Source of the DNA: Candidatus Hydrothermarchaeota archaeon
Lineage (GTDB): Archaea > Hydrothermarchaeota > Hydrothermarchaeia > Hydrothermarchaeales > BMS3B
Assembly: GCA_964501105.1 (NCBI GenBank)
Contig: CAZCRG010000001.1
Coordinates: 1-60,397, forward strand
Length of the DNA: 60,397 bases
Reading direction: 5' to 3'
Shown here: positions 3,219 through 55,111 of the stretch, in pieces
Position numbering within the stretch: position 1 is the first letter of the stretch
Layout of the letters: each line of letters opens with the position of its first letter
Made by a program: the position numbers and the translations under genes
Notes under the pieces: model-generated
What the model saw: only the letters and a program-made list of their open reading frames with translations
Databases searched by the model: none
Told to the model about the DNA's origin: nothing

Positions 3219-5666
3219 TCAAGGCTGAGAAGTTAGCATAGTAAAAGGGGTTGTAATTTTTCCCATCATCTCCTTTATTAGCCTCCTCACCTCTTCAGCC
3301 TTTCTGCTTCTCCTGAGCTTCATTATCTCCAGAAGTCCTTCTGCCTTTCTTACAATAGTATCAAGATAGTTGAATATATCTCCCGAGAAGGTTTCCATAT
3401 AGTAGGCTGAGAGGCTTCTTGATAACTCTTTTATACTCTTTCCCTGCCTTCTTAGCTGAATTATCTTTCGCGAGAGCTCCTCCTGGGCATGCTGACAGTA
3501 GGGAAATTCTTCACAGGAGCACCTCAGAAACTCTTCCCTTACCAGTTCAACAATATCCATAAACTCTTCCCTGGGCTCCTGAAAGATTATGCCCAGGCCG
3601 TCGAAGTAGCGCAGGGGCACAGCTACTTTATAGCTTCTCTGAATTTTTGAAGCCAGGCTCCTTGAGAGGTAGGCGTTGGTGAAGGGAAACAATTTAGAGA
3701 GAATTCTCTCCGGGCTTTCGCTGCTTGAGTACATGACTTTAGCCTCGTAGGGCTTCAGAAAGTGTCTTGAGGCTATCCTCCCGAGCTGGGTTATTTTCTC
3801 TCCTCTAATCATACCCTGTTCTTCAAGCTTTTTCAGAGCTTTCTCTATGTTCACAGGGAAGAGCATATCCCTGGCAACTCTAACTCCTTCCCTAATGCTT
3901 CCAGCACTGACTATGCAGGCTAAAAGCTGCTCTTCCTCTTCGTCCTCCTCTCCAGGAATATCAATATCCTCAGGCTTACCTGAAAGAAGCTTCACAGCAA
4001 TCTCGTCCTCACTCTCTTTTGAGGAGAAGGAAGTTTTAGCTCCAGGTGTAGCCAGAATTACCACCTTACCCCTATCGTGATAACTTGGCCTTCCAGCCCT
4101 GCCCTGCATCTGAAGAAAATCTCTCACCCCAAGCTCCTTATTTCCCATGGTGAGACTCTCAAAGATCACCTGGGAGGCTGGAAAGTCTATCCCTGCCCCC
4201 AAAGCTGAGGTGGTAACCACACAGTTCAGCTTCTGCTCAATAAAATTATTCTCTATCCTTTTTCTCCTGGAATAACTCAGACCGGCGTGGTATTCACTTG
4301 CTTTAACTCCTCTGCTGGATAGAAATCTTGCTATTGAAGAAGCCTTTCTTCTTGAGTTGGTAAATACAAGGCTCTGGCCATAGAAGCCCTTACTGGATTT
4401 TATGGCAGCTTCTCTCTTCACAAGCTTTAAAATTGCAGAAAGCTTCTCTTCTTCACTTTTTGTGAAAACAAGGTGTCTTTCCAGAGGAATGGGTCTTGAA
4501 TCACTCTTCACAAGCCTGAGGGAGTAATGCTCAGCAATCTCCTCTGGATTTCCAACTGTTGCAGTTAAAGCAATTATTCTCGCCTTTGGGAAGGCATGCC
4601 TCAATCTTGAAAGAAAGCCATCCAGCTCAATTCCCCTTTCCTCCTGGCTCAGAGTGTGAACCTCATCCACTGCCACAACCCCAATCTTTCCAAGGCTTTC
4701 TTTCTTCCCTGACCTTAGAAGGTGGTCTATTCCCTCGTAGGTTCCCACTATTATATCAGAGCCTTCAAGCTTTGAGTCCTCCATCAGAGGCTCATCCTCG
4801 TCAACTATCCTGCTCCTTCCCACCCTTATTGCCACTCTTAGCCCCAGGCTTGAATAAACCTTAAATTCTTCATACTTCTGGTTTGCAAGAGCAACAAGAG
4901 GCACAAGAAAGAGAAATTTCTCCCCCCTTAGGGCAGCTTCAATACCTGCAAGCTCAGCAATTAGAGTTTTCCCTGATGCAGTGGAACTTGCCACAAGAAG
5001 AGAGCTTCCTTCAAGCAGTCCTGCACCTAAAGCCAGCTTTTGAATTGATGTGAGCTCTTCTATATTCCTTTCCTTCAAGATTTCCCTGAATTCTCTATTT
5101 ATTGGCAGTTCCTCTAGCTTTATTCCTTTCTCCACCTCTGCCTTAACTTTATCAAAAAGGGTGTGACTTTCCTCAAGACTCTGACTTTGAAGGAGCTTTG
5201 AAACTCTATCGAAATCTCTGAATCTCTCCAGGAGCTTTGAGAAGTGCTCAAAGCTTGCAGTGGAAAAACCTCTAAATTTAAGCTCTCTCTTCAGTTCTTC
5301 CTCAGCACAGCTTCTGCACACCTTTCTGCCATAGAGAAGATAGAAATTTTTCTTAACAGGTTTTACTCTACCTTTATTTAAGCAGGGTGTGCATAGTTCA
5401 ACACTCTGATAGCTCAGCTTCTCCTTTCTCATTAGAGGCTCCAGAACATGGCTATGCTCCCTGGAAAAAAGAATTTTCTGCTCTTTTAAAAGTTTCAGAA
5501 GTTCTTTTCTGGCCACAGGGGCAGAGAACCTTTTAGAATTGAGACTCCAGAGTTTCCCATCCCTTATACTCACTGTGCCTTCCAGATGAAGCTTCTCAAA
5601 ATTAAGACTGTAGAGCTTCAAAGTTAGAGTTCTTCTACCTCTTGGTATAAAAAGGGCATATCCCAT
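3219..5666 (-). CDS. Ski2-like SF2 RNA/DNA helicase with an N-terminal C4 zinc-finger region (ASH-Ski2-like)
   Basis: Walker A SSTASGKT, motif II DEVH, motif VI QMQGRAGR. The N-terminal region carries CTPC...CRSC, and there is a C-terminal acidic patch plus a Cys-containing tail. Confidence 0.75.
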   Translation of the reverse strand: MGYALFIPRGRRTLTLKLYSLNFEKLHLEGTVSIRDGKLWSLNSKRFSAPVARKELLKLLKEQKILFSREHSHVLEPLMRKEKLSYQSVELCTPCLNKGRVKPVKKNFYLLYGRKVCRSCAEEELKRELKFRGFSTASFEHFSKLLERFRDFDRVSKLLQSQSLEESHTLFDKVKAEVEKGIKLEELPINREFREILKERNIEELTSIQKLALGAGLLEGSSLLVASSTASGKTLIAELAGIEAALRGEKFLFLVPLVALANQKYEEFKVYSSLGLRVAIRVGRSRIVDEDEPLMEDSKLEGSDIIVGTYEGIDHLLRSGKKESLGKIGVVAVDEVHTLSQEERGIELDGFLSRLRHAFPKARIIALTATVGNPEEIAEHYSLRLVKSDSRPIPLERHLVFTKSEEEKLSAILKLVKREAAIKSSKGFYGQSLVFTNSRRKASSIARFLSSRGVKASEYHAGLSYSRRKRIENNFIEQKLNCVVTTSALGAGIDFPASQVIFESLTMGNKELGVRDFLQMQGRAGRPSYHDRGKVVILATPGAKTSFSSKESEDEIAVKLLSGKPEDIDIPGEEDEEEEQLLACIVSAGSIREGVRVARDMLFPVNIEKALKKLEEQGMIRGEKITQLGRIASRHFLKPYEAKVMYSSSESPERILSKLFPFTNAYLSRSLASKIQRSYKVAVPLRYFDGLGIIFQEPREEFMDIVELVREEFLRCSCEEFPYCQHAQEELSRKIIQLRRQGKSIKELSRSLSAYYMETFSGDIFNYLDTIVRKAEGLLEIMKLRRSRKAEEVRRLIKEMMGKITTPFTMLTSQP

Positions 5667-8452: not shown

Positions 8453-9625
8453 TTAAAGCTTCTCTCTCAGCTCCACAGCTTCCCTGAAGGCTTCAAGAAC
8501 TTTATCAATCTCCTCCTGGCTTAAGCCATAGACACTTAGCTTGATGTGCTTGCTCAGCCCTTTGTGAAGGCCAACAATATTGCGCTTAATCATGTGCTCA
8601 GCCAGGAAGAAGCCCCTGCGCTTGTGCTTCTTGGAAATTTCCCAGAAAACAGGAGTCTCAAAGTGCAGCAGGTGATGCTTCTTGGGGCGCTCGCCGAGAA
8701 GCATTATGTCGCCTTCGCCAATCTCTTCCAGCCTATCCACAAAGTCGTTAATCTTCTTCAGCTCTTCATCCCAGCGCTTCACCCTCTCCTTAACATAATC
8801 AAAGGTTAGCATTGAGCTTATCACCGGGATGCCACCAATACTACAACCGAAGAGGTTGGGAAGCTTCTTTCCAAAGACTCTGCCTGTCCACTCTGCCTTG
8901 GACTTTGAGGTGGCAAAGATCTTCTTGCTCCACTCGTAGGTTGTAACAACATAGCCCAGAGGTCCCAGGGAGGCCATGGACTTGTGAGCACTGACAGTAA
9001 GAAACTGGGCCCTCATCTTTTTAAGATTCACTGGTGCCACACCAGCAGTGTAAGCAGCATTAACCATGTAAGGTATATCCTTCTCCTCACAGAGCTTTCC
9101 TATCTCTTCCACAGGGGCCAAATTGCCGAAGTAAGGGTCTGCATGGGTAACCACCACAAGGGCAGGCCTACCAACCTCTTCAATTTTCTCCTCAAAGGCT
9201 TCAACAGTAACCCTGTACTCCGGGTAGCCTGTGTGGGGTGGCTCAACAACCTTCAAGCCTGCCATCTCAGCAGCTATATTTGTGGAGTAGTGAGAATTGG
9301 GATCAACAACAATAACAGGCTCGATACCTTCTTCCTTGCAGTAGTCAGCAATTGTCTTCATCACTGCAAACTGGGCACCTCTGCAGCCGAAGGTGTGCTC
9401 TGCCTCATCTCCACCAAAGAATTCAGCCACCTGACCTAAGAAACTTGTAACTGGGGGCTTGGAAACAAGACTGCTCCTGCCCTGAAGGCAGTCGTGGCAT
9501 AGAGAATAGCCTACCTCAAGCCAGCCCTCTTCACATAACTTTGCCTGAACCTCCTCAGGCACAATTCCTCCCCTCATGAGAGGGTTAATAATTATGTGGT
9601 CCTTATATCTGTTAACAAACTTCAC
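8453..9625 (-). CDS. pscS: O-phosphoseryl-tRNA(Cys):Cys-tRNA synthase (SepCysS)
   Basis: INPLMRGG, CxDC near the N-terminus, PLP-lysine region SAHKSMAS, KRWDEE and LSVYGLSQEEIDKVLEAF align along the whole length with my recollection of the M. jannaschii MJ1678 family. The GTG start overlaps the upstream stop (GTGA). Confidence 0.88.
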   Translation of the reverse strand: MKFVNRYKDHIIINPLMRGGIVPEEVQAKLCEEGWLEVGYSLCHDCLQGRSSLVSKPPVTSFLGQVAEFFGGDEAEHTFGCRGAQFAVMKTIADYCKEEGIEPVIVVDPNSHYSTNIAAEMAGLKVVEPPHTGYPEYRVTVEAFEEKIEEVGRPALVVVTHADPYFGNLAPVEEIGKLCEEKDIPYMVNAAYTAGVAPVNLKKMRAQFLTVSAHKSMASLGPLGYVVTTYEWSKKIFATSKSKAEWTGRVFGKKLPNLFGCSIGGIPVISSMLTFDYVKERVKRWDEELKKINDFVDRLEEIGEGDIMLLGERPKKHHLLHFETPVFWEISKKHKRRGFFLAEHMIKRNIVGLHKGLSKHIKLSVYGLSQEEIDKVLEAFREAVELREKL

Positions 9626-10524
9626 ACTTTCACCTTCGCCACAAGGTCTTCAATTATTTCCCTGATACCCTTTCCAGTATTTAAATCTATACCTTCACCG
9701 TCCCTCAGGGTGGCAAAGACATCGCTCCAGGGACCTCGTGTTTTTACTTCCAGGGGCTTCTCCACCTTAACTTCACCCCTTATGGGCAGGTGAATTGTAA
9801 TATAGCTCACCCTTCCGGTGTTGTCTTTATTGAGATAAATCCTCACACTTCTGCCATTAATTCTACCAAAGAAGTAGTCTATTCCCTTTTCAAAGCCCAG
9901 ACTCTCAAGGGCATTCACTATTCTTGGAGGTAGGTCACTGGTTCTGCAGCCGCAGAGAGCACCGCAGCTCTTCTGCATGGCTTTAACCTTAACCTCCAGC
10001 TCCTTAAAGAACTCTGGAGGCGCTCCCAGAATTACCTCGCCATCCTTGTAATCTGCAAACATCCTTGCGCCACCGCAGAGAAAGCTGAGATTTGCCCTTC
10101 CTTCCTTTATAGGTAAGGCAGTTACCTCACCACAAACTGCTATTCCGCCCTTAAAATGGGCCTCAAGGCCATCAACCAGGGCTGCTATCTCCATAGCCTG
10201 CCTGGGATTGAGAATCATTAACACCACATCAGGGTTGGGGAGCTTCTCCAGAGGGGCAATGAGAACTGCCTTTGTTTTTGCAGGCTGAAGTCTGGGCTGG
10301 AGGTCAATAAAGCTAGGCTCCTGAAAGCCCAGGGCTATAAGCGATTCTGGGCATTCCTCATCATCCTCCAGCATCAGCAAGGTCTCTCCAAGAGCAGCCC
10401 TCTTTACAAACTCGCAGTACCTGCCTGGCCTCTCAGGCCGTGGGTAACCCTGGGGCAACTGCTCAAAAATCTTAATTCCAACAAGACTGTACCTACTTCC
10501 AAAGTATTCTCTTATTGCCTTCAT
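9622..10524 (-). CDS. DUF169 (COG2043)-like Cys-rich protein with a C-terminal extension of about 70 aa
   Basis: The N-terminal two thirds resemble DUF169 (YCEFVKRA, ECPESLIALGF, SFLCGGARMF, CGALCGC). There are 8 Cys in total. The stop overlaps the SepCysS start. Confidence 0.55.
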   Translation of the reverse strand: MKAIREYFGSRYSLVGIKIFEQLPQGYPRPERPGRYCEFVKRAALGETLLMLEDDEECPESLIALGFQEPSFIDLQPRLQPAKTKAVLIAPLEKLPNPDVVLMILNPRQAMEIAALVDGLEAHFKGGIAVCGEVTALPIKEGRANLSFLCGGARMFADYKDGEVILGAPPEFFKELEVKVKAMQKSCGALCGCRTSDLPPRIVNALESLGFEKGIDYFFGRINGRSVRIYLNKDNTGRVSYITIHLPIRGEVKVEKPLEVKTRGPWSDVFATLRDGEGIDLNTGKGIREIIEDLVAKVKV

Positions 10525-10531
10525 AAAATTC

Positions 10532-10783
10532 TTACTCCAGAGCCGGGATTTCTATATAAATCTCGTAGGTCATATCTCCAACTTTTTTAACCTCTGTTAC
10601 CTTGTAACCCTTGTTCTCCTGCTGAAGGCTTCTCGGTATACTTTCCACTGCTGGTGGGTAGTCCACTATAACCTTGAGCTTTCCTCCACCTGAGTAGCCT
10701 ATCTCCTCGGCCTTGATCTTTGTGTAAACAAAGGTGTCGGGGCAGCGCTCTCCCCTTAAATCAAGAGTCTCATAGTCGCTCAT
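10532..10783 (-). CDS. TusA/SirA-like sulfur carrier protein
   Basis: 83 aa. LDLRGERCPDTF matches the TusA D-x-R/K-G-x-x-CP active-site Cys motif. The ATGA junction overlaps the E1 gene's stop. Confidence 0.7.
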   Translation of the reverse strand: MSDYETLDLRGERCPDTFVYTKIKAEEIGYSGGGKLKVIVDYPPAVESIPRSLQQENKGYKVTEVKKVGDMTYEIYIEIPALE

Positions 10784-11568
10784 TCACCCACCTCACACAC
10801 ATCTTCAACTGGCTTAGGTATGAACTCAGCGCCACAGGCAGAACAGTTGTCTCTCCTCCTTATATTCACCACATCGAAGCTCATAATGTCGGCATTTATA
10901 ATCAGAAGCTTATTTTTCAGCCCTATCTCTAAACCTGCAAGGTAGCGGATTGCCTCTGTTGCCTGAATGGCTCCAACTATTCCAGTAACACTTCCAAGGA
11001 TTCCTGCCTCCCTGCAGGTGGGTATAGTACCCTGAGGTGGTGCCTCAGGAAAGACACACCTGAAGCAGGCTGTCTCCTTAGGAATAATACTCATAACCCT
11101 GCCTTCATACATCAGAGCAGCGCCGTGAAAGAGGGGAATGTTATTAACTACAGCAGCATCGTTGACAGCATAGCGCACAGCAAAGTTGTCTGTGCCGTCG
11201 ACTATTGCATCGTAGCCCTTCAGAAGATCAAAGGCATTGTCGTAGGTTATCTTCTCAGTTATCCCCTCAACTTTAATCTCAGGGTTGACCTCCTGAAGTC
11301 TCCTTGCTGCAAGCTTTGCCTTGGGCTTACCTACATCTTCAGGTGTGTAGAGAAACTGGCGATTTAAATTGCTCAGCTCCACATTGTCCATGTCAAAGAT
11401 GTGGATTTCTCCCACACCTGCAAGAGTTAAGTAAGTGGAAACTGGCGAGCCCAGGCCGCCTGCACCAGTAACTGCCACCTTTGCTGCTTTGAGTTTTGCC
11501 TGCTCCTTTGTTCCAAAATCCTGAAGAATCAACTGCCTTGAGTAGCGTTTAATCTCATTTAAATTCAC
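10780..11568 (-). CDS. ThiF/MoeB/UbaA-type E1-like adenylyltransferase
   Basis: RYSRQ, nucleotide loop GAGGLGS, catalytic region PTCREAGILG, and zinc pairs CFRC and CSAC. There is no rhodanese domain. The GTG start overlaps the upstream stop. Confidence 0.85.
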   Translation of the reverse strand: MNLNEIKRYSRQLILQDFGTKEQAKLKAAKVAVTGAGGLGSPVSTYLTLAGVGEIHIFDMDNVELSNLNRQFLYTPEDVGKPKAKLAARRLQEVNPEIKVEGITEKITYDNAFDLLKGYDAIVDGTDNFAVRYAVNDAAVVNNIPLFHGAALMYEGRVMSIIPKETACFRCVFPEAPPQGTIPTCREAGILGSVTGIVGAIQATEAIRYLAGLEIGLKNKLLIINADIMSFDVVNIRRRDNCSACGAEFIPKPVEDVCEVGE

Positions 11569-12032
11569 TTTTTCTCCTCCCTGATATACTCCTCAATCTC
11601 TCTTACGAATTTGTTGCCAAGGGCTTCAATTCTTAGCTCAAAGTCCTCATCAACATCTTCTCCAATGCCTATGCCGGGGCATTCCTCGGCTGCCCCCACC
11701 TTGAGAACAATCTCATCAGAGTAGATAACTCCATCGAAGAGGAAGGGATACATCTGGCAGGAGAGAGGTTTGGCATCAAGGTTGTGAAGAGAGCAGGAAA
11801 AGTCATCTTTGAGAAATATGCATCTGTCCTGCTTTCCCTTAAGTCTGAAGAGTCCCTTTCCTGCCTCGCTCTCAATGAACTCCTCTGGCTTAAGTCCTGT
11901 TACTTCTGAGATTCTCTCCTTTCCTCTGGAGGTTATAACTCTCCCGGGAGTGCAGCACTTTGCTCTGCATTCCTTGTAAAGACAGGTGAAGCGCTCAATT
12001 CTGTAGGGTGTATATACAATCAAAAAACTCAA
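11565..12032 (-). CDS. YkgJ/UPF0153-type cysteine-cluster protein (putative Fe-S or Zn protein)
   Basis: CLYKECRAKCC near the N-terminus and further Cys (CIF, CSLH, CQMYPF, ECPG) are typical of the CxxCxxCC family. The TTG start overlaps the MoaD-like gene's stop. Confidence 0.55.
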   Translation of the reverse strand: MSFLIVYTPYRIERFTCLYKECRAKCCTPGRVITSRGKERISEVTGLKPEEFIESEAGKGLFRLKGKQDRCIFLKDDFSCSLHNLDAKPLSCQMYPFLFDGVIYSDEIVLKVGAAEECPGIGIGEDVDEDFELRIEALGNKFVREIEEYIREEKK

Positions 12033-12298
12033 CCTCCAGAAACTGCTGGAAGAATTGAGAGCACATCATCAGGGTTAAGCTCAGTATCTAAACCCTTTTT
12101 GAACCTTACATCCTCATTGTTGTGGAAAATATTTATAAACTGCTTTATATCGCCGCCATCAAGGATTTTCTCTGCAAAGCCAGGGCTCTTTGCTTCTATC
12201 TTTTCAATTACCTCTCTGACAGTACTTCCTTCCACTTCAATCTCTGGTTTTCCTCCTGAAAACTTCCTGAGTGGTGTAGCAAGCCTTACAACTACCAT
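12029..12298 (-). CDS. MoaD/ThiS-family ubiquitin-like sulfur carrier (SAMP-like) ending in Gly-Gly
   Basis: 89 aa ending ILPAVSGG followed directly by the stop codon. The pattern is beta-grasp-like. The start overlaps the ThrC-like gene's stop by 7 nt (ATGGTAG). Confidence 0.75.
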   Translation of the reverse strand: MVVVRLATPLRKFSGGKPEIEVEGSTVREVIEKIEAKSPGFAEKILDGGDIKQFINIFHNNEDVRFKKGLDTELNPDDVLSILPAVSGG

Positions 12299-13527
12299 AT
12301 CACAGCCTCCTTTTTGAGAAGTTTATTAAATTCATCCAGATCAGGTGAAATTTGCTGGGGCTCTTTAAGTCTGTTAATAAGAACATCTTGAGTTTTAAGT
12401 CCATTTCCTGTGATATAGGCCACAACTTTCTCATCTTTATCAATTTCTCCAGCTTCCACCAGATTTTTAAGAGTTCCTATAACAACGCCGCCTGCTGTCT
12501 CTGTGAAGATCCCTTCAGTTCTGGCGAGAAGCTTTATCCCCTCTATTATCTCATCATCATTAGCTGCACCTGCTGTACCTCCTGTTTCTTTGATAAGCTT
12601 CACAGCATAGAAGCCGTCGGCAGGGTTGCCAATGGCGAGGCTCTGCTCTATTGTATTGGGCTTCACTGGCCTTATGGGTTCCCCAGTCCTGAAGGCAGTT
12701 GTTACAGGAGAGCATCCAGAGCTCTGGGCAGCAGTCACTTTTGTGTTAACCTCATCTATCAATCCAGTTACTTCAAGCTCCTTCAGCCCCTTGTGGATTT
12801 TTGTCAGCAGAGAGCCTGAACCCACAGGCGCTATATAGCGCTCTGGAGCCTCCCAGCCCAGCTGCTCTGCAACCTCAAAACCGAGAGTTTTTGAACCCTC
12901 GCTGTAGTAGGGCCTTATATTTATATTCACAAAGGCCCACTCATAGTAGCTGGCTATCTCTGTGCACAGCCTGTTGACATCATCATAGTTCCCATCAACA
13001 GCCACAAGGTTGGGGTCATAGGCTAAAGTGGGTATAATCTTTCCCAGGCTGAGATTTTTTGGTATGAAGATGTAGCAGTTGAGCTTTGCCTTGGCTGCAT
13101 GGGCAGCAACACTGTTGGCAAGATTTCCTGTTGAAGCACAGGCTACTGTGTCAAAGCCGAACTCTATAGCCTTGCTAACTGCTACTGAAACCACTCTATC
13201 CTTGAAGGAGAAGGTCGGGTTGACACTGTCATTTTTGATGTACAATTCCCTGAGGCCAAGAGCTTCAGCAAGGTTGTCAGCCTTATGAAGAGGTGTGAAG
13301 CCTGCCCTCAAATCCACAACTTTTTTTCTGTCCTCAACAGGGAGAAAGTCTATATAGCGCCACAGTGTTGGCTCACCCTTCTCTATTTTCTCTCTGGATA
13401 CCCTTTCTTTAATCACTTCATAATCATACTCAACTTCAAGAGGTCCAAAGCATTCTTCACAGATATTTACAGGTTGAACCTCATATTCTGCTCCGCAGTT
13501 TCTGCATTTTAATCCAATTACCTTCAT
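12292..13527 (-). CDS. Threonine-synthase-family PLP enzyme (fold type II) with an N-terminal zinc ribbon
   Basis: CRNCG...CEEC ribbon, PLP-lysine motif SFKDR, and a Gly-rich loop GSGSL. AGGTGAT lies upstream of the ATG. It may be authentic ThrC or a thiocarboxylate-dependent sulfhydrylase (see findings). Confidence 0.8.
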   Translation of the reverse strand: MKVIGLKCRNCGAEYEVQPVNICEECFGPLEVEYDYEVIKERVSREKIEKGEPTLWRYIDFLPVEDRKKVVDLRAGFTPLHKADNLAEALGLRELYIKNDSVNPTFSFKDRVVSVAVSKAIEFGFDTVACASTGNLANSVAAHAAKAKLNCYIFIPKNLSLGKIIPTLAYDPNLVAVDGNYDDVNRLCTEIASYYEWAFVNINIRPYYSEGSKTLGFEVAEQLGWEAPERYIAPVGSGSLLTKIHKGLKELEVTGLIDEVNTKVTAAQSSGCSPVTTAFRTGEPIRPVKPNTIEQSLAIGNPADGFYAVKLIKETGGTAGAANDDEIIEGIKLLARTEGIFTETAGGVVIGTLKNLVEAGEIDKDEKVVAYITGNGLKTQDVLINRLKEPQQISPDLDEFNKLLKKEAVIW

Positions 13528-13580
13528 GGCATCACCTAAGATAGTAGATATTATTACTACTATATATATTTTTTGGTGAT

Positions 13581-13601
13581 ATAATTACTATTAGTAATTA
13601 T
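13581..13601. promoter_or_regulatory. Perfect 21-bp palindrome in the divergent promoter region (candidate operator)
   Basis: ATAATTACTA-T-TAGTAATTAT has 10-nt arms. It lies between the TATA-like elements serving the sulfur operon (minus strand) and PHI (plus strand). A related element TAGTAG-N9-CTACTA sits at 13542-13562 and shares the ATTACTA half-site. Confidence 0.4.
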
Positions 13602-13642
13602 TGTGCTAAGCCTTAAATATTATCAGATTTTAAGATATACCT

Positions 13643-24199: not shown

Positions 24200-25123
24200 T
24201 CATATATAATGCTCAAGGCTGCGCTGCATCTTGCTCAGCCTCCTCTGCCTGAGCACAACAAACTTCTGAAAGGCTTCGAGATTTCTGAATTTTAGATTTT
24301 TAATTGCAGAGAAGCTCCAGTCGCTGGCATTTATACTTGCCACGCTGTTTGCTATATTTGCAGCCTTCAAAGCATTTTCAGTAAGCATATAGCAGGTAAT
24401 AAAACTCCCAGCGTAAGCATCACCACAGCCAGTTAAATCAACAACATGCTGCTGAATCACAGATGGTGAGAAGTTTATCTCCCCTCTATCTATAACAACA
24501 CTTCCATAAACTCCCATGGTGATGACAACTATATTTGCATCAAGCTTTTTAAAGGCATTAATGGCCTGTTCAATACTTCTGGTCTTTGTTAGTAGCATAG
24601 CTTCCTCGTCATTTATGGTGAAGACATCCACCATGGAAATAAGTTCAAGAAGTTCCTTCCTGTATCTTGCAAAGTAGGCTGCATGGGTGTTAAGAGAAAT
24701 CAAGCCGTAGGTGTTCTCCCTTAGAAATTCAACAAAACTCTTCTGCTTGCTGGCTGCCATGGGAGCAATGTGGAAAGCCTTGGCTGTGAGATACTTCTTT
24801 GGAAGGTCTTCAGGTCGTATATGTACGCCCACACCGAGAGAGTAAGCATTATAAACAGCCTGAGCATTTTCAGTGTAGGTTATATCAAAGAAGGTGCTTT
24901 TTCCAGAGACCTGTTTTATGCCAGTGGTGTCTATACCGAGGGATTCAAGAGTGCTGAAAAAGTCTGCAGGAAAGTCTCTGCCAACTCTTGATACTATGCC
25001 CGAGTCAGCAAAGATGTTGGCAGCTATGGCAGAGTAAACACTTGCTCCTCCAAGCTGCTTCCTCCTCCTGCCGTTGATTTCAACTCTGTCAACACTCGCA
25101 TGGCCTATAGCAACGACTTCCAT
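24200..25123 (-). CDS. PfkB-family carbohydrate/nucleoside kinase
   Basis: GGASVY near the N-terminus and the C-terminal DLTGCGDAYAGSF anion-hole motif. Confidence 0.75.
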   Translation of the reverse strand: MEVVAIGHASVDRVEINGRRRKQLGGASVYSAIAANIFADSGIVSRVGRDFPADFFSTLESLGIDTTGIKQVSGKSTFFDITYTENAQAVYNAYSLGVGVHIRPEDLPKKYLTAKAFHIAPMAASKQKSFVEFLRENTYGLISLNTHAAYFARYRKELLELISMVDVFTINDEEAMLLTKTRSIEQAINAFKKLDANIVVITMGVYGSVVIDRGEINFSPSVIQQHVVDLTGCGDAYAGSFITCYMLTENALKAANIANSVASINASDWSFSAIKNLKFRNLEAFQKFVVLRQRRLSKMQRSLEHYI

Positions 25124-30867: not shown

Positions 30868-30951
30868 CGTCGGGGGTGGGATTCGAACCCACGAGGGCAT
30901 AAGCCCATCAGCTTAGCAGGCTGACGCCATACCGGGCTTGGCTACCCCGAC
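30868..30951 (-). tRNA. tRNA-Ser (anticodon GCU)
   Basis: The minus strand reads GTCGGGG-TA-GCCAAGCCCGGTATGGC-G-TCAGC-CTGCTAA-GCTGA-[15-nt variable arm]-GTGGGTTCGAATCCCAC-CCCCGAC-G. The cloverleaf is complete with a long variable arm, and no CCA is encoded. Confidence 0.9.
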
Positions 30952-54512: not shown

Positions 54513-54587
54513 CGGGCCCGACGGGATTCGAACCCGCGACACCCGGCTTAAAAGGCCGGTGCTCTAGCCAGACTGAGCTACGGGCCC
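54513..54587 (-). tRNA. tRNA-Lys (anticodon UUU)
   Basis: The minus strand reads GGGCCCG-TA-GCTCAGTCTGGCTAGAGC-A-CCGGC-CTTTTAA-GCCGG-GTGTC-GCGGGTTCGAATCCCGT-CGGGCCC-G. The cloverleaf is complete and no CCA is encoded. Confidence 0.9.
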
Positions 54588-54740
54588 ATACACAACCTGC
54601 GCTAGAAGAAAGAAAGCCCCGACTACTTCTGAACAAATATTTATAAAATGACGAAGCTACTTTAGAATAACTTAAACTGGTCATCACGGGGCTACCTCTC
54701 TTCTCAGGGGGGATTTTCATATTTTCTATAATTCTGGAGA

Positions 54741-54815
54741 CGCCCTGGTCGGGATTTGAACCCGAGTCGCAGGAGTGACAGTCCTGCATGATAGGCCGGT
54801 CTACACTACCAGGGC
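54741..54815 (-). tRNA. tRNA-Asp (anticodon GUC)
   Basis: The minus strand reads GCCCTGG-TA-GTGTAGACCGGCCTATCAT-GCAGG-ACTGTCAC-TCCTGC-GAC-TCGGGTTCAAATCCCGA-CCAGGGC-G. This is a typical archaeal tRNA-Asp. Confidence 0.9.
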
Positions 54816-54873
54816 AACATCCAGAGATGATAGGATTTAACCATCTTCTAAAATCTTCAATAATTATGAGGGG

Positions 54874-54991
54874 GCTGGCAGCGTCCTCGCCTTCCCGCGA
54901 GCTCGCGCATCGCAGTACAAGCGAGATCGCTGGAGGGCTTAACTTCCGTGTTCTAATGGGAACGGGTGTGGCCCCTCCGCTGTGGCCGCCA
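54874..54991 (-). rRNA. rrf: 5S ribosomal RNA (ends approximate, about +/-4 nt)
   Basis: The minus strand reads TGGCGGCCACAGCGGAGGGGCCACACCCGTTCCCATTAGAACACGGAAGTTAAGCCCTCCAGCGAT...GCTGCCAG. Helix I pairs GGCGGC with GCTGCC, and the loop C/helix III consensus CCGTTCCCAT..GAACACGGAAGTTAAGC is present. Confidence 0.85.
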
Positions 54992-55111
54992 TACCCTTCA
55001 AGTGACCTTTGCATACTAAATTCTTGCTTACTCTTTGCATTTTGCTTTTGGGCTCTTGCATAAAAGTTGGTGTAACTATTGCAAATATTATCGTAACAGG
55101 TACTGCGCAGG

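Follow-up and report, generated by a model that had tools for sequence, protein, structure and literature searches.

A threonine synthase paralog and its overlapping sulfur carrier gene in a Hydrothermarchaeota archaeon: a probable MetM/MetO-type route to homocysteine

What is the function of a gene that reads as a threonine synthase (ThrC) and runs, across seven shared nucleotides, into the gene of a small sulfur carrier? The pair lies on contig CAZCRG010000001.1 (assembly GCA_964501105.1) of a Candidatus Hydrothermarchaeota archaeon, in a stretch of 60,397 nucleotides (positions 1 to 60,397) that we call the window. An earlier note, made from the letters alone, had proposed that the enzyme may be a sulfhydrylase making homocysteine, either instead of threonine or in addition to it. 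Our comparative genomics supports this proposal: the genome has a separate ThrC, the protein falls into a distinct clade, and its orthologs occur under S-adenosylmethionine (SAM) riboswitches together with an E1 activating enzyme and a carrier. Judged from these sequence comparisons, the ThrC paralog is probably a thiocarboxylate-dependent homocysteine synthase of the MetM type and the overlapping gene would encode its MetO-type carrier, making the pair most likely an archaeal, Hydrothermarchaeota member of the MetM/MetO family described in 2024.

The enzyme gene (13527..12292, minus strand), delineated by its open reading frame and by profile matches, encodes a fold-type II pyridoxal phosphate (PLP) enzyme of 411 residues (Pfam PALP, 6.7e-71). 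It reaches 296 bits against the NCBIfam thrC model TIGR00260 (cut-off 167), has the SFKDR motif at residues 107-111, with K109 as the PLP lysine, and carries a four-cysteine ribbon at its N-terminus (C8, C11, C23, C26). The ThrC hallmarks that had been read from the sequence are thereby borne out, with the qualification that the zinc ribbon, while present, is no distinguishing mark, as the canonical ThrC of the genome carries one too. To the crystallised ThrCs 1UIM, 2ZSJ, 6CGQ and 2D1F the protein is 38-41% identical, and a PDB sequence search with it returned no relative nearer than canonical ThrC. The carrier gene (12298..12029, minus strand), recognised from its open reading frame and the ThiS profile, encodes a MetO-like ubiquitin-fold protein of 89 residues that ends in SILPAVSGG and has the ThiS/MoaD fold (Pfam ThiS, 5.7e-15); it scores just above the cut-off of the NCBIfam model SAMP1 (61.2 against 60 bits) and 47.8 bits against moaD_arch. 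At the junction, AAGGAGGCTGTGATATGGTAG, the carrier ATG (12298-12296) and the TAG of the ThrC-like gene (12294-12292) have the seven nucleotides ATGGTAG in common, and a GGAGG sits seven nucleotides ahead of the ATG; the overlap with a Gly-Gly-terminated MoaD/ThiS-like gene was thus read correctly in the earlier note. Chance arrangement is no concern, since each of the 13 related archaeal loci has the pair as well, its genes overlapping by 1-10 nucleotides in 12 of them and standing 5 nucleotides apart in one.

Could the protein be a threonine synthase after all? It is not the threonine synthase of the organism, as a canonical ThrC is encoded elsewhere. The assembly, of 1.75 Mb and 98% complete, contains three ThrC-family genes: a canonical ThrC, a cysteate synthase homolog and the window gene. 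The canonical gene, on contig C73, scores better than the window protein (374 bits against the thrC model), is 41% identical to it at the protein level and adjoins a gene for HomK, a proposed homoserine kinase (553 bits with TIGR02535, cut-off 446), so that the second thrC whose existence had been raised as a check is indeed found, and beside it the genome's supply of O-phosphohomoserine. HomK as the supplier of this compound has been validated in GapMind 2026. The third paralog (C44:11642-12895; locus L003:1405-2658, minus strand) reaches 504 bits against the cysteate synthase model TIGR03844 (cut-off 325). The lineage is not known as methanogenic; cysteate might be used there for coenzyme M or for a sulfolipid.

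The phylogenetic position of the window protein was assessed with relatives from a scan of species-representative genomes, which yielded 294, the best 80 of which were used for the comparison of loci. These best 80 of 294 range from 89% identity in Hydrothermarchaeota-type archaea down to 56-65% in Aquificota, Armatimonadota, Nitrospinota, Chloroflexota, Myxococcota, Binatota, Verrucomicrobiota, Latescibacterota, Cyanobacteriota, Actinomycetota and ammonia-oxidising Nitrososphaerota. One or more further ThrC-family genes were present in each of the 23 source genomes tested. Trees were inferred by maximum likelihood, once with LG+G4 and once with a site-mixture model, from 44-45 window-like proteins, 33 other paralogs of the same 23 genomes and the four crystallised ThrCs. 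Under both models the window-like proteins form one clade (support of 100 in the Shimodaira-Hasegawa-like approximate likelihood ratio test) on a long stem (0.66 and 0.96), which leaves out all 33 other paralogs and the four crystallised proteins; the window protein thus falls outside canonical archaeal ThrC, as the homocysteine reading of the earlier note had implied. Bacterial members of the clade are 51-62% identical to the window protein, and the homolog of a cultured actinomycete, Nonomuraea gerenzanensis, lies inside it at 50.7%. Used as a protein query, this homolog gave matches from Streptosporangiales only, named threonine synthase. Within the phylum of the window, identities to the window protein fall cleanly into two groups, at 66% or above and at 42% or below. 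The ThrC-like genes of a contig labelled Geoglobus sp. (L005, JALUWC010000087.1) and of Candidatus Pyrohabitans (L006) are near-identical, on tree branches about 0.005 long; the former contig is probably mis-binned and of Hydrothermarchaeota origin, rather than evidence of an Archaeoglobaceae gene.

Because the clade members had been sampled by similarity, their monophyly alone is weak evidence; it is strengthened by the origin of the other paralogs in the very same genomes and by the two separate identity groups within the phylum. At 15 alignment columns, all 45 clade members share one residue and all 18 canonical ThrCs another. In Thermus thermophilus numbering, counted from the PDB alignment, these columns include G64V, M65V, T88L, S155N, N157R and R160Y, with T88L, S155N and R160Y at L136, N203 and Y208 of the window protein. 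The canonical residues at all six positions are thus replaced in the window protein, despite its 296-bit match to TIGR00260, and the clade has motifs of its own, which in the window protein read TFSFKDRVV, STGNL and VNINIRPYY. T88, S155 and R160 we take to be ligands, in ThrC, of the substrate or product phosphate, which steers the addition of water. It is improbable that the protein is just another isozyme of threonine synthase, or one that doubles as a deaminase, with a carrier next to it by coincidence. Such a role would agree with the score above the TIGR00260 cut-off, with the name threonine synthase that every source uniformly gives to this protein and its homologs, and with the weak threonine synthase and deaminase activity of a cyanobacterial relative in vitro (PMC12172450). 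Yet it would have to accommodate a canonical ThrC and HomK in the same genome, invariant substitutions specific to the clade at the presumed phosphate ligands, and the regulation of the orthologs, which has no sense for threonine synthesis.

This regulation is seen in the bacterial loci. Of the 22 scanned, 13 carry a SAM riboswitch (RF00162, 69-96 bits) upstream in the same orientation, usually in the order riboswitch, E1, ThrC-like gene, carrier, as in Myxococcota, Binatota and Verrucomicrobiota; in Latescibacterota, one Dehalococcoidia locus and N. gerenzanensis it immediately precedes the ThrC-like gene. The combination of SAM riboswitch, E1 and carrier at the orthologs indicates a role in the synthesis of homocysteine and methionine rather than in that of threonine or cysteine. 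A precedent exists in Streptomyces, where the ThrC homolog MetM converts O-phosphohomoserine and the thiocarboxylate of MetO to homocysteine (Hasebe et al., 2024, Appl Environ Microbiol 90:e01247-24, as relayed by GapMind 2026 and PMC12172450). The earlier note had named this pair, and rightly so. According to the same secondary accounts, metM is preceded by a SAM riboswitch and frequently carries the wrong annotation threonine synthase (GapMind 2026; PMC12172450).

Should the acceptor instead be O-phosphoserine, the pair would perform a β-replacement with a thiocarboxylate, as a cysteine synthase of the CysM/CysO kind or as an enzyme yielding a different thiol amino acid. O-phosphoserine is produced in the organism for SepRS, and SepCysS (the Sep-tRNA:Cys-tRNA synthase) is encoded by the last gene of the same operon; furthermore, a ThrC-derived cysteate synthase, acting on O-phosphoserine, is present in the genome, and a gene of the CysK/CysM kind adjoins the pair in some bacteria. 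Against this stand the riboswitch of the orthologs, which responds to SAM and not to a cysteine signal, the use of O-phosphohomoserine by the characterised family member, as far as GapMind 2026 reports it, and the match of the window protein to the cysteate synthase model TIGR03844, at 75 bits far under the cut-off of 325. We consider this alternative highly improbable. The neighbours concerned vary: in Nitrospinota a PALP gene of the CysK kind lies directly upstream of the MetM-like gene, in another locus (L062) a CysK/CysM-like gene follows the carrier, and in a third (L034) a canonical ThrC follows the pair.

Does the enzyme draw on the carrier at all? A homocysteine synthase could use free sulfide in vivo, with carrier and E1 serving tRNA thiolation, molybdopterin synthesis or protein modification. 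The habitat, sulfidic vent fluid, would allow it, and a follow-up paper, with reference to Hasebe et al., used Na2S to mimic MetM activity (PMC12172450). Moreover, only a single E1 was found in the genome, alongside five carriers ending in Gly-Gly, and must serve several of them, and in 11 loci of Aquificaceae and Dehalococcoidia no carrier adjoins the gene. The genomic association is nevertheless tight. A MoaD-like gene follows within 2 kb in 65 of the 80 loci, among them all 13 archaeal ones, where it is translationally coupled, and carrier and enzyme co-vary across domains, the window carrier being 45% identical to that of Nonomuraea over its full length (E 1e-27). The carrier is also a dedicated paralog, as the genome encodes four further ubiquitin-fold carriers ending in Gly-Gly (C3:1873-2169, C11:~24530-24730, C15:~3866-4114, C88:6679-6885), namely a canonical MoaD on C15, two ThiS-like proteins and one SAMP-like protein. 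On balance, the use of free sulfide in place of the carrier is unlikely. A housekeeping role of the window carrier as MoaD was considered and rejected, given the canonical MoaD on C15, which is above the cut-off of TIGR01682 and 26% identical to it. All 13 archaeal carriers end at the Gly-Gly, while most bacterial ones (about 45) have one to six residues past it, such that the latter would need proteolytic maturation and the archaeal ones no trimming.

The chemistry of a MetM-type synthase in this archaeon can be outlined by analogy with the published Streptomyces system. Going by its family, the E1 of the operon would adenylate the C-terminal Gly-Gly of the carrier, and delivery of sulfur would then yield the carrier thiocarboxylate, the donor being the TusA protein of the operon, possibly with its Cys-rich and DUF169 proteins, or sulfide directly. 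The PLP enzyme would remove phosphate from O-phosphohomoserine, the product of the HomK encoded beside the true thrC, and the thiocarboxylate would attack the γ carbon to give homocysteine, in place of the addition of water that leads to threonine. Homocysteine might finally be freed from the carrier adduct by the single JAMM hydrolase of the genome. Only one clear JAMM gene was found, which lies outside the operon and scores 110 bits as desampylase-like, short of the cut-off of 130.

How does the pair compare with known systems? With MetM/MetO of Streptomyces albulus, which acts with Mec and MoeZ, it shares, in the published description as it is summarised elsewhere (GapMind 2026; PMC12172450), a ThrC-homologous PLP enzyme with an adjacent Gly-Gly carrier, a separate true ThrC and, presumably, the need for activation of the carrier by an E1; as a proxy for S. 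albulus itself, the riboswitch-controlled pair of Nonomuraea shares a clade with the window enzyme. Within the limits of these summaries, the window differs in its archaeal host, in a conserved promoter palindrome in place of a riboswitch, in a carrier encoded ready with terminal Gly-Gly, in an E1 that, unlike MoeZ, has no rhodanese domain, in an operon without Mec gene, and in additional operon genes for a Cys-rich protein, TusA, DUF169 and SepCysS. Canonical ThrC, as represented by the proteins of T. thermophilus (1UIM), Aquifex aeolicus (2ZSJ), Bacillus subtilis (6CGQ) and Mycobacterium tuberculosis (2D1F), has the same fold, PLP lysine motif and presumably substrate, but forms a separate clade, with the 15 columns fixed otherwise, and has no carrier partner. 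In the CysM/CysO/Mec+/MoeZ system of M. tuberculosis, CysM, a member of the CysK family, produces cysteine by β-replacement on O-phosphoserine. It is alike in that a PLP enzyme of fold type II acts on a hydroxy-amino acid bearing a phosphate, with a protein thiocarboxylate formed on an E1-activated carrier, but the window enzyme belongs to the ThrC family. The COG1900 protein (HcyBio, of the MA1821 type) and NIL-ferredoxin of methanogens reportedly form homocysteine from aspartate semialdehyde, with no protein thiocarboxylate; this is an anaerobic archaeal answer to the same step, with the same product and unrelated proteins. Wolinella succinogenes, finally, is said to make homocysteine with HcyS, HcyF, HcyD and MetY in a thiocarboxylate-dependent manner. 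There, too, a protein thiocarboxylate donates the sulfur, but the enzyme is a fold-type I O-acetylhomoserine sulfhydrylase (PF01053), of a family that is absent from the genome of the window.

Several observations weigh against the assignment as a MetM-type synthase. The link to S. albulus MetM itself runs via the Nonomuraea proxy and published identity figures, which makes it a probable rather than a direct one. A cyanobacterial homolog that is 51.6% identical to MetM acts as threonine synthase and deaminase in vitro and has no MetM role in cells (PMC12172450), and some members of the clade may accordingly be promiscuous. The E1 of the operon has no rhodanese domain like that of MoeZ, and no Mec/JAMM gene is part of the operon. 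A search of the genome with PF01717 gave no clear MetE, the weak match being a URO-D/MtaA-like protein. Finally, the genome has both routes to homocysteine: a COG1900 HcyBio-CBS gene overlaps the gene of a NIL-like 2x[4Fe-4S] ferredoxin (C4:1447-3353, locus L114), which would make MetM redundant here.

The last point gains perspective from a survey of 38 genomes of the phylum, Hydrothermarchaeota. The MetM-like gene is found in 31 of them, the COG1900 HcyBio route in 6, and the PF01053 sulfhydrylase/transsulfuration family in a single bin of 57% completeness. In terms of combinations, 28 genomes have the MetM-like gene only, 3 both routes, 3 HcyBio only and 4, all incomplete bins, neither; the tendency of the two to complement each other across the phylum is no more than suggestive (Fisher p = 0.063). 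The view in the earlier note that the pair fills a gap in methionine sulfur supply therefore holds in part: this genome has the COG1900/NIL-ferredoxin route as well, but in 28 of the 38 genomes the MetM-like gene is the sole recognisable route. Given how frequent it is relative to the sulfhydrylase family and the methanogen-type route, the MetM/MetO-type pair is probably the main route of methionine synthesis in this uncultured vent phylum.

The pair opens an operon of seven tightly packed minus-strand genes, in the order ThrC-like enzyme, carrier, Cys-rich protein, E1, TusA, DUF169 and SepCysS, whose junctions are overlaps of 4-7 nucleotides, with a 7-nucleotide gap as the single exception. 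The Cys-rich protein (11565..12032, minus; 155 residues, with eight invariant cysteines and one invariant histidine) is placed between carrier and E1 in the window and in 11 of 13 related loci from archaea, which makes 12 of 14. In Pfam it gave nothing significant, with a weak DUF3109 match (E 0.0013), and in the PDB no sequence match; its AlphaFold model is confident (pLDDT, the predicted local distance difference test score, 85.7) and found no Foldseek match in the PDB. Profile matches identify the next gene (10780..11568, minus) as an E1 adenylyltransferase of the ThiF/MoeB/UbaA type, of 262 residues and without rhodanese domain, followed by a TusA-family sulfurtransferase of 83 residues with the motif RGERCP (10532..10783, minus) and a DUF169/COG2043 protein of 300 residues (9622..10524, minus), whose C-terminal extension has no family match; a literature search yielded no function for DUF169. 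The SepCysS gene (8453..9625, minus; profile match) overlaps the DUF169 stop with its start by 4 nucleotides. E1, TusA, DUF169 and SepCysS are each the sole copy found in the genome, which also encodes SepRS. In archaeal relatives, the order from the ThrC-like gene through DUF169 is kept.

Upstream of the operon, the promoter region (13528..13642) contains a palindrome with the core TTACT-N3-AGTAA (13581-13601), about 10 nucleotides upstream of a box, CCGAAAA-TATATATA, that resembles a B recognition element (BRE) and TATA sequence. Besides the window, 10 of 11 Hydrothermarchaeota loci examined (L004-L011, L013, L014 and L016) have the palindrome ahead of the MetM-like gene. It is probably the operator of some regulator, in the place that the SAM riboswitch takes in bacteria; an Rfam search near the operon found no riboswitch and no other Rfam family. 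As a genome-wide scan for the palindrome gave no convincing second site, no regulon can be defined. The sequencing runs that contain this stretch are DNA metagenomes only. Elsewhere in the window, a 5S rRNA gene with two adjacent tRNA genes (54513-54993, minus) and one more tRNA gene (30868-30951, minus) are ordinary.

What might SepCysS contribute at the end of such an operon? In nine of the 31 phylum genomes with a MetM-like gene, from at least five families, SepCysS follows on the same strand at a distance of 2.7-3 kb (the window and G024, G036, G037, G038, G040, G043, G044, G048), and two further genomes show variants: G045 has a diverged SepCysS-like gene in that place, and G046 has SepCysS adjacent on the opposite strand. 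In G045 the sole SepCysS-like gene is a variant of 39% identity directly after E1. This linkage, including the two variants, raises the tentative and, in our view, doubtful possibility that the seven-gene operon is a sulfur-relay hub for both sulfur amino acids. In such a hub, E1, TusA, the Cys-rich protein and DUF169 would load sulfur from sulfide without cysteine desulfurase or rhodanese. Handed on as carrier thiocarboxylate or persulfide, this sulfur would supply MetM in making homocysteine as well as SepCysS in making Cys-tRNA.

While enzyme pairs of the MetM/MetO kind have been known since 2024, what is new here is the accessory set of Cys-rich protein, E1 without rhodanese domain, TusA, DUF169 and SepCysS, and the value for follow-up lies in this set and in the recurrent linkage of SepCysS. 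It offers tractable proteins for studying how thiocarboxylates are loaded in anaerobes without rhodanese-E1 fusions, and it bears on whether SepCysS draws on the same sulfur supply. For metabolic reconstruction, the uniform label threonine synthase will make homocysteine synthesis look missing and add a spurious second thrC, which affects Hydrothermarchaeota, Thaumarchaeota, Nitrospinota, Aquificota and others. Should the operon prove to be a sulfur-relay hub, the long-standing question of where SepCysS obtains its sulfur in vivo would be answered.

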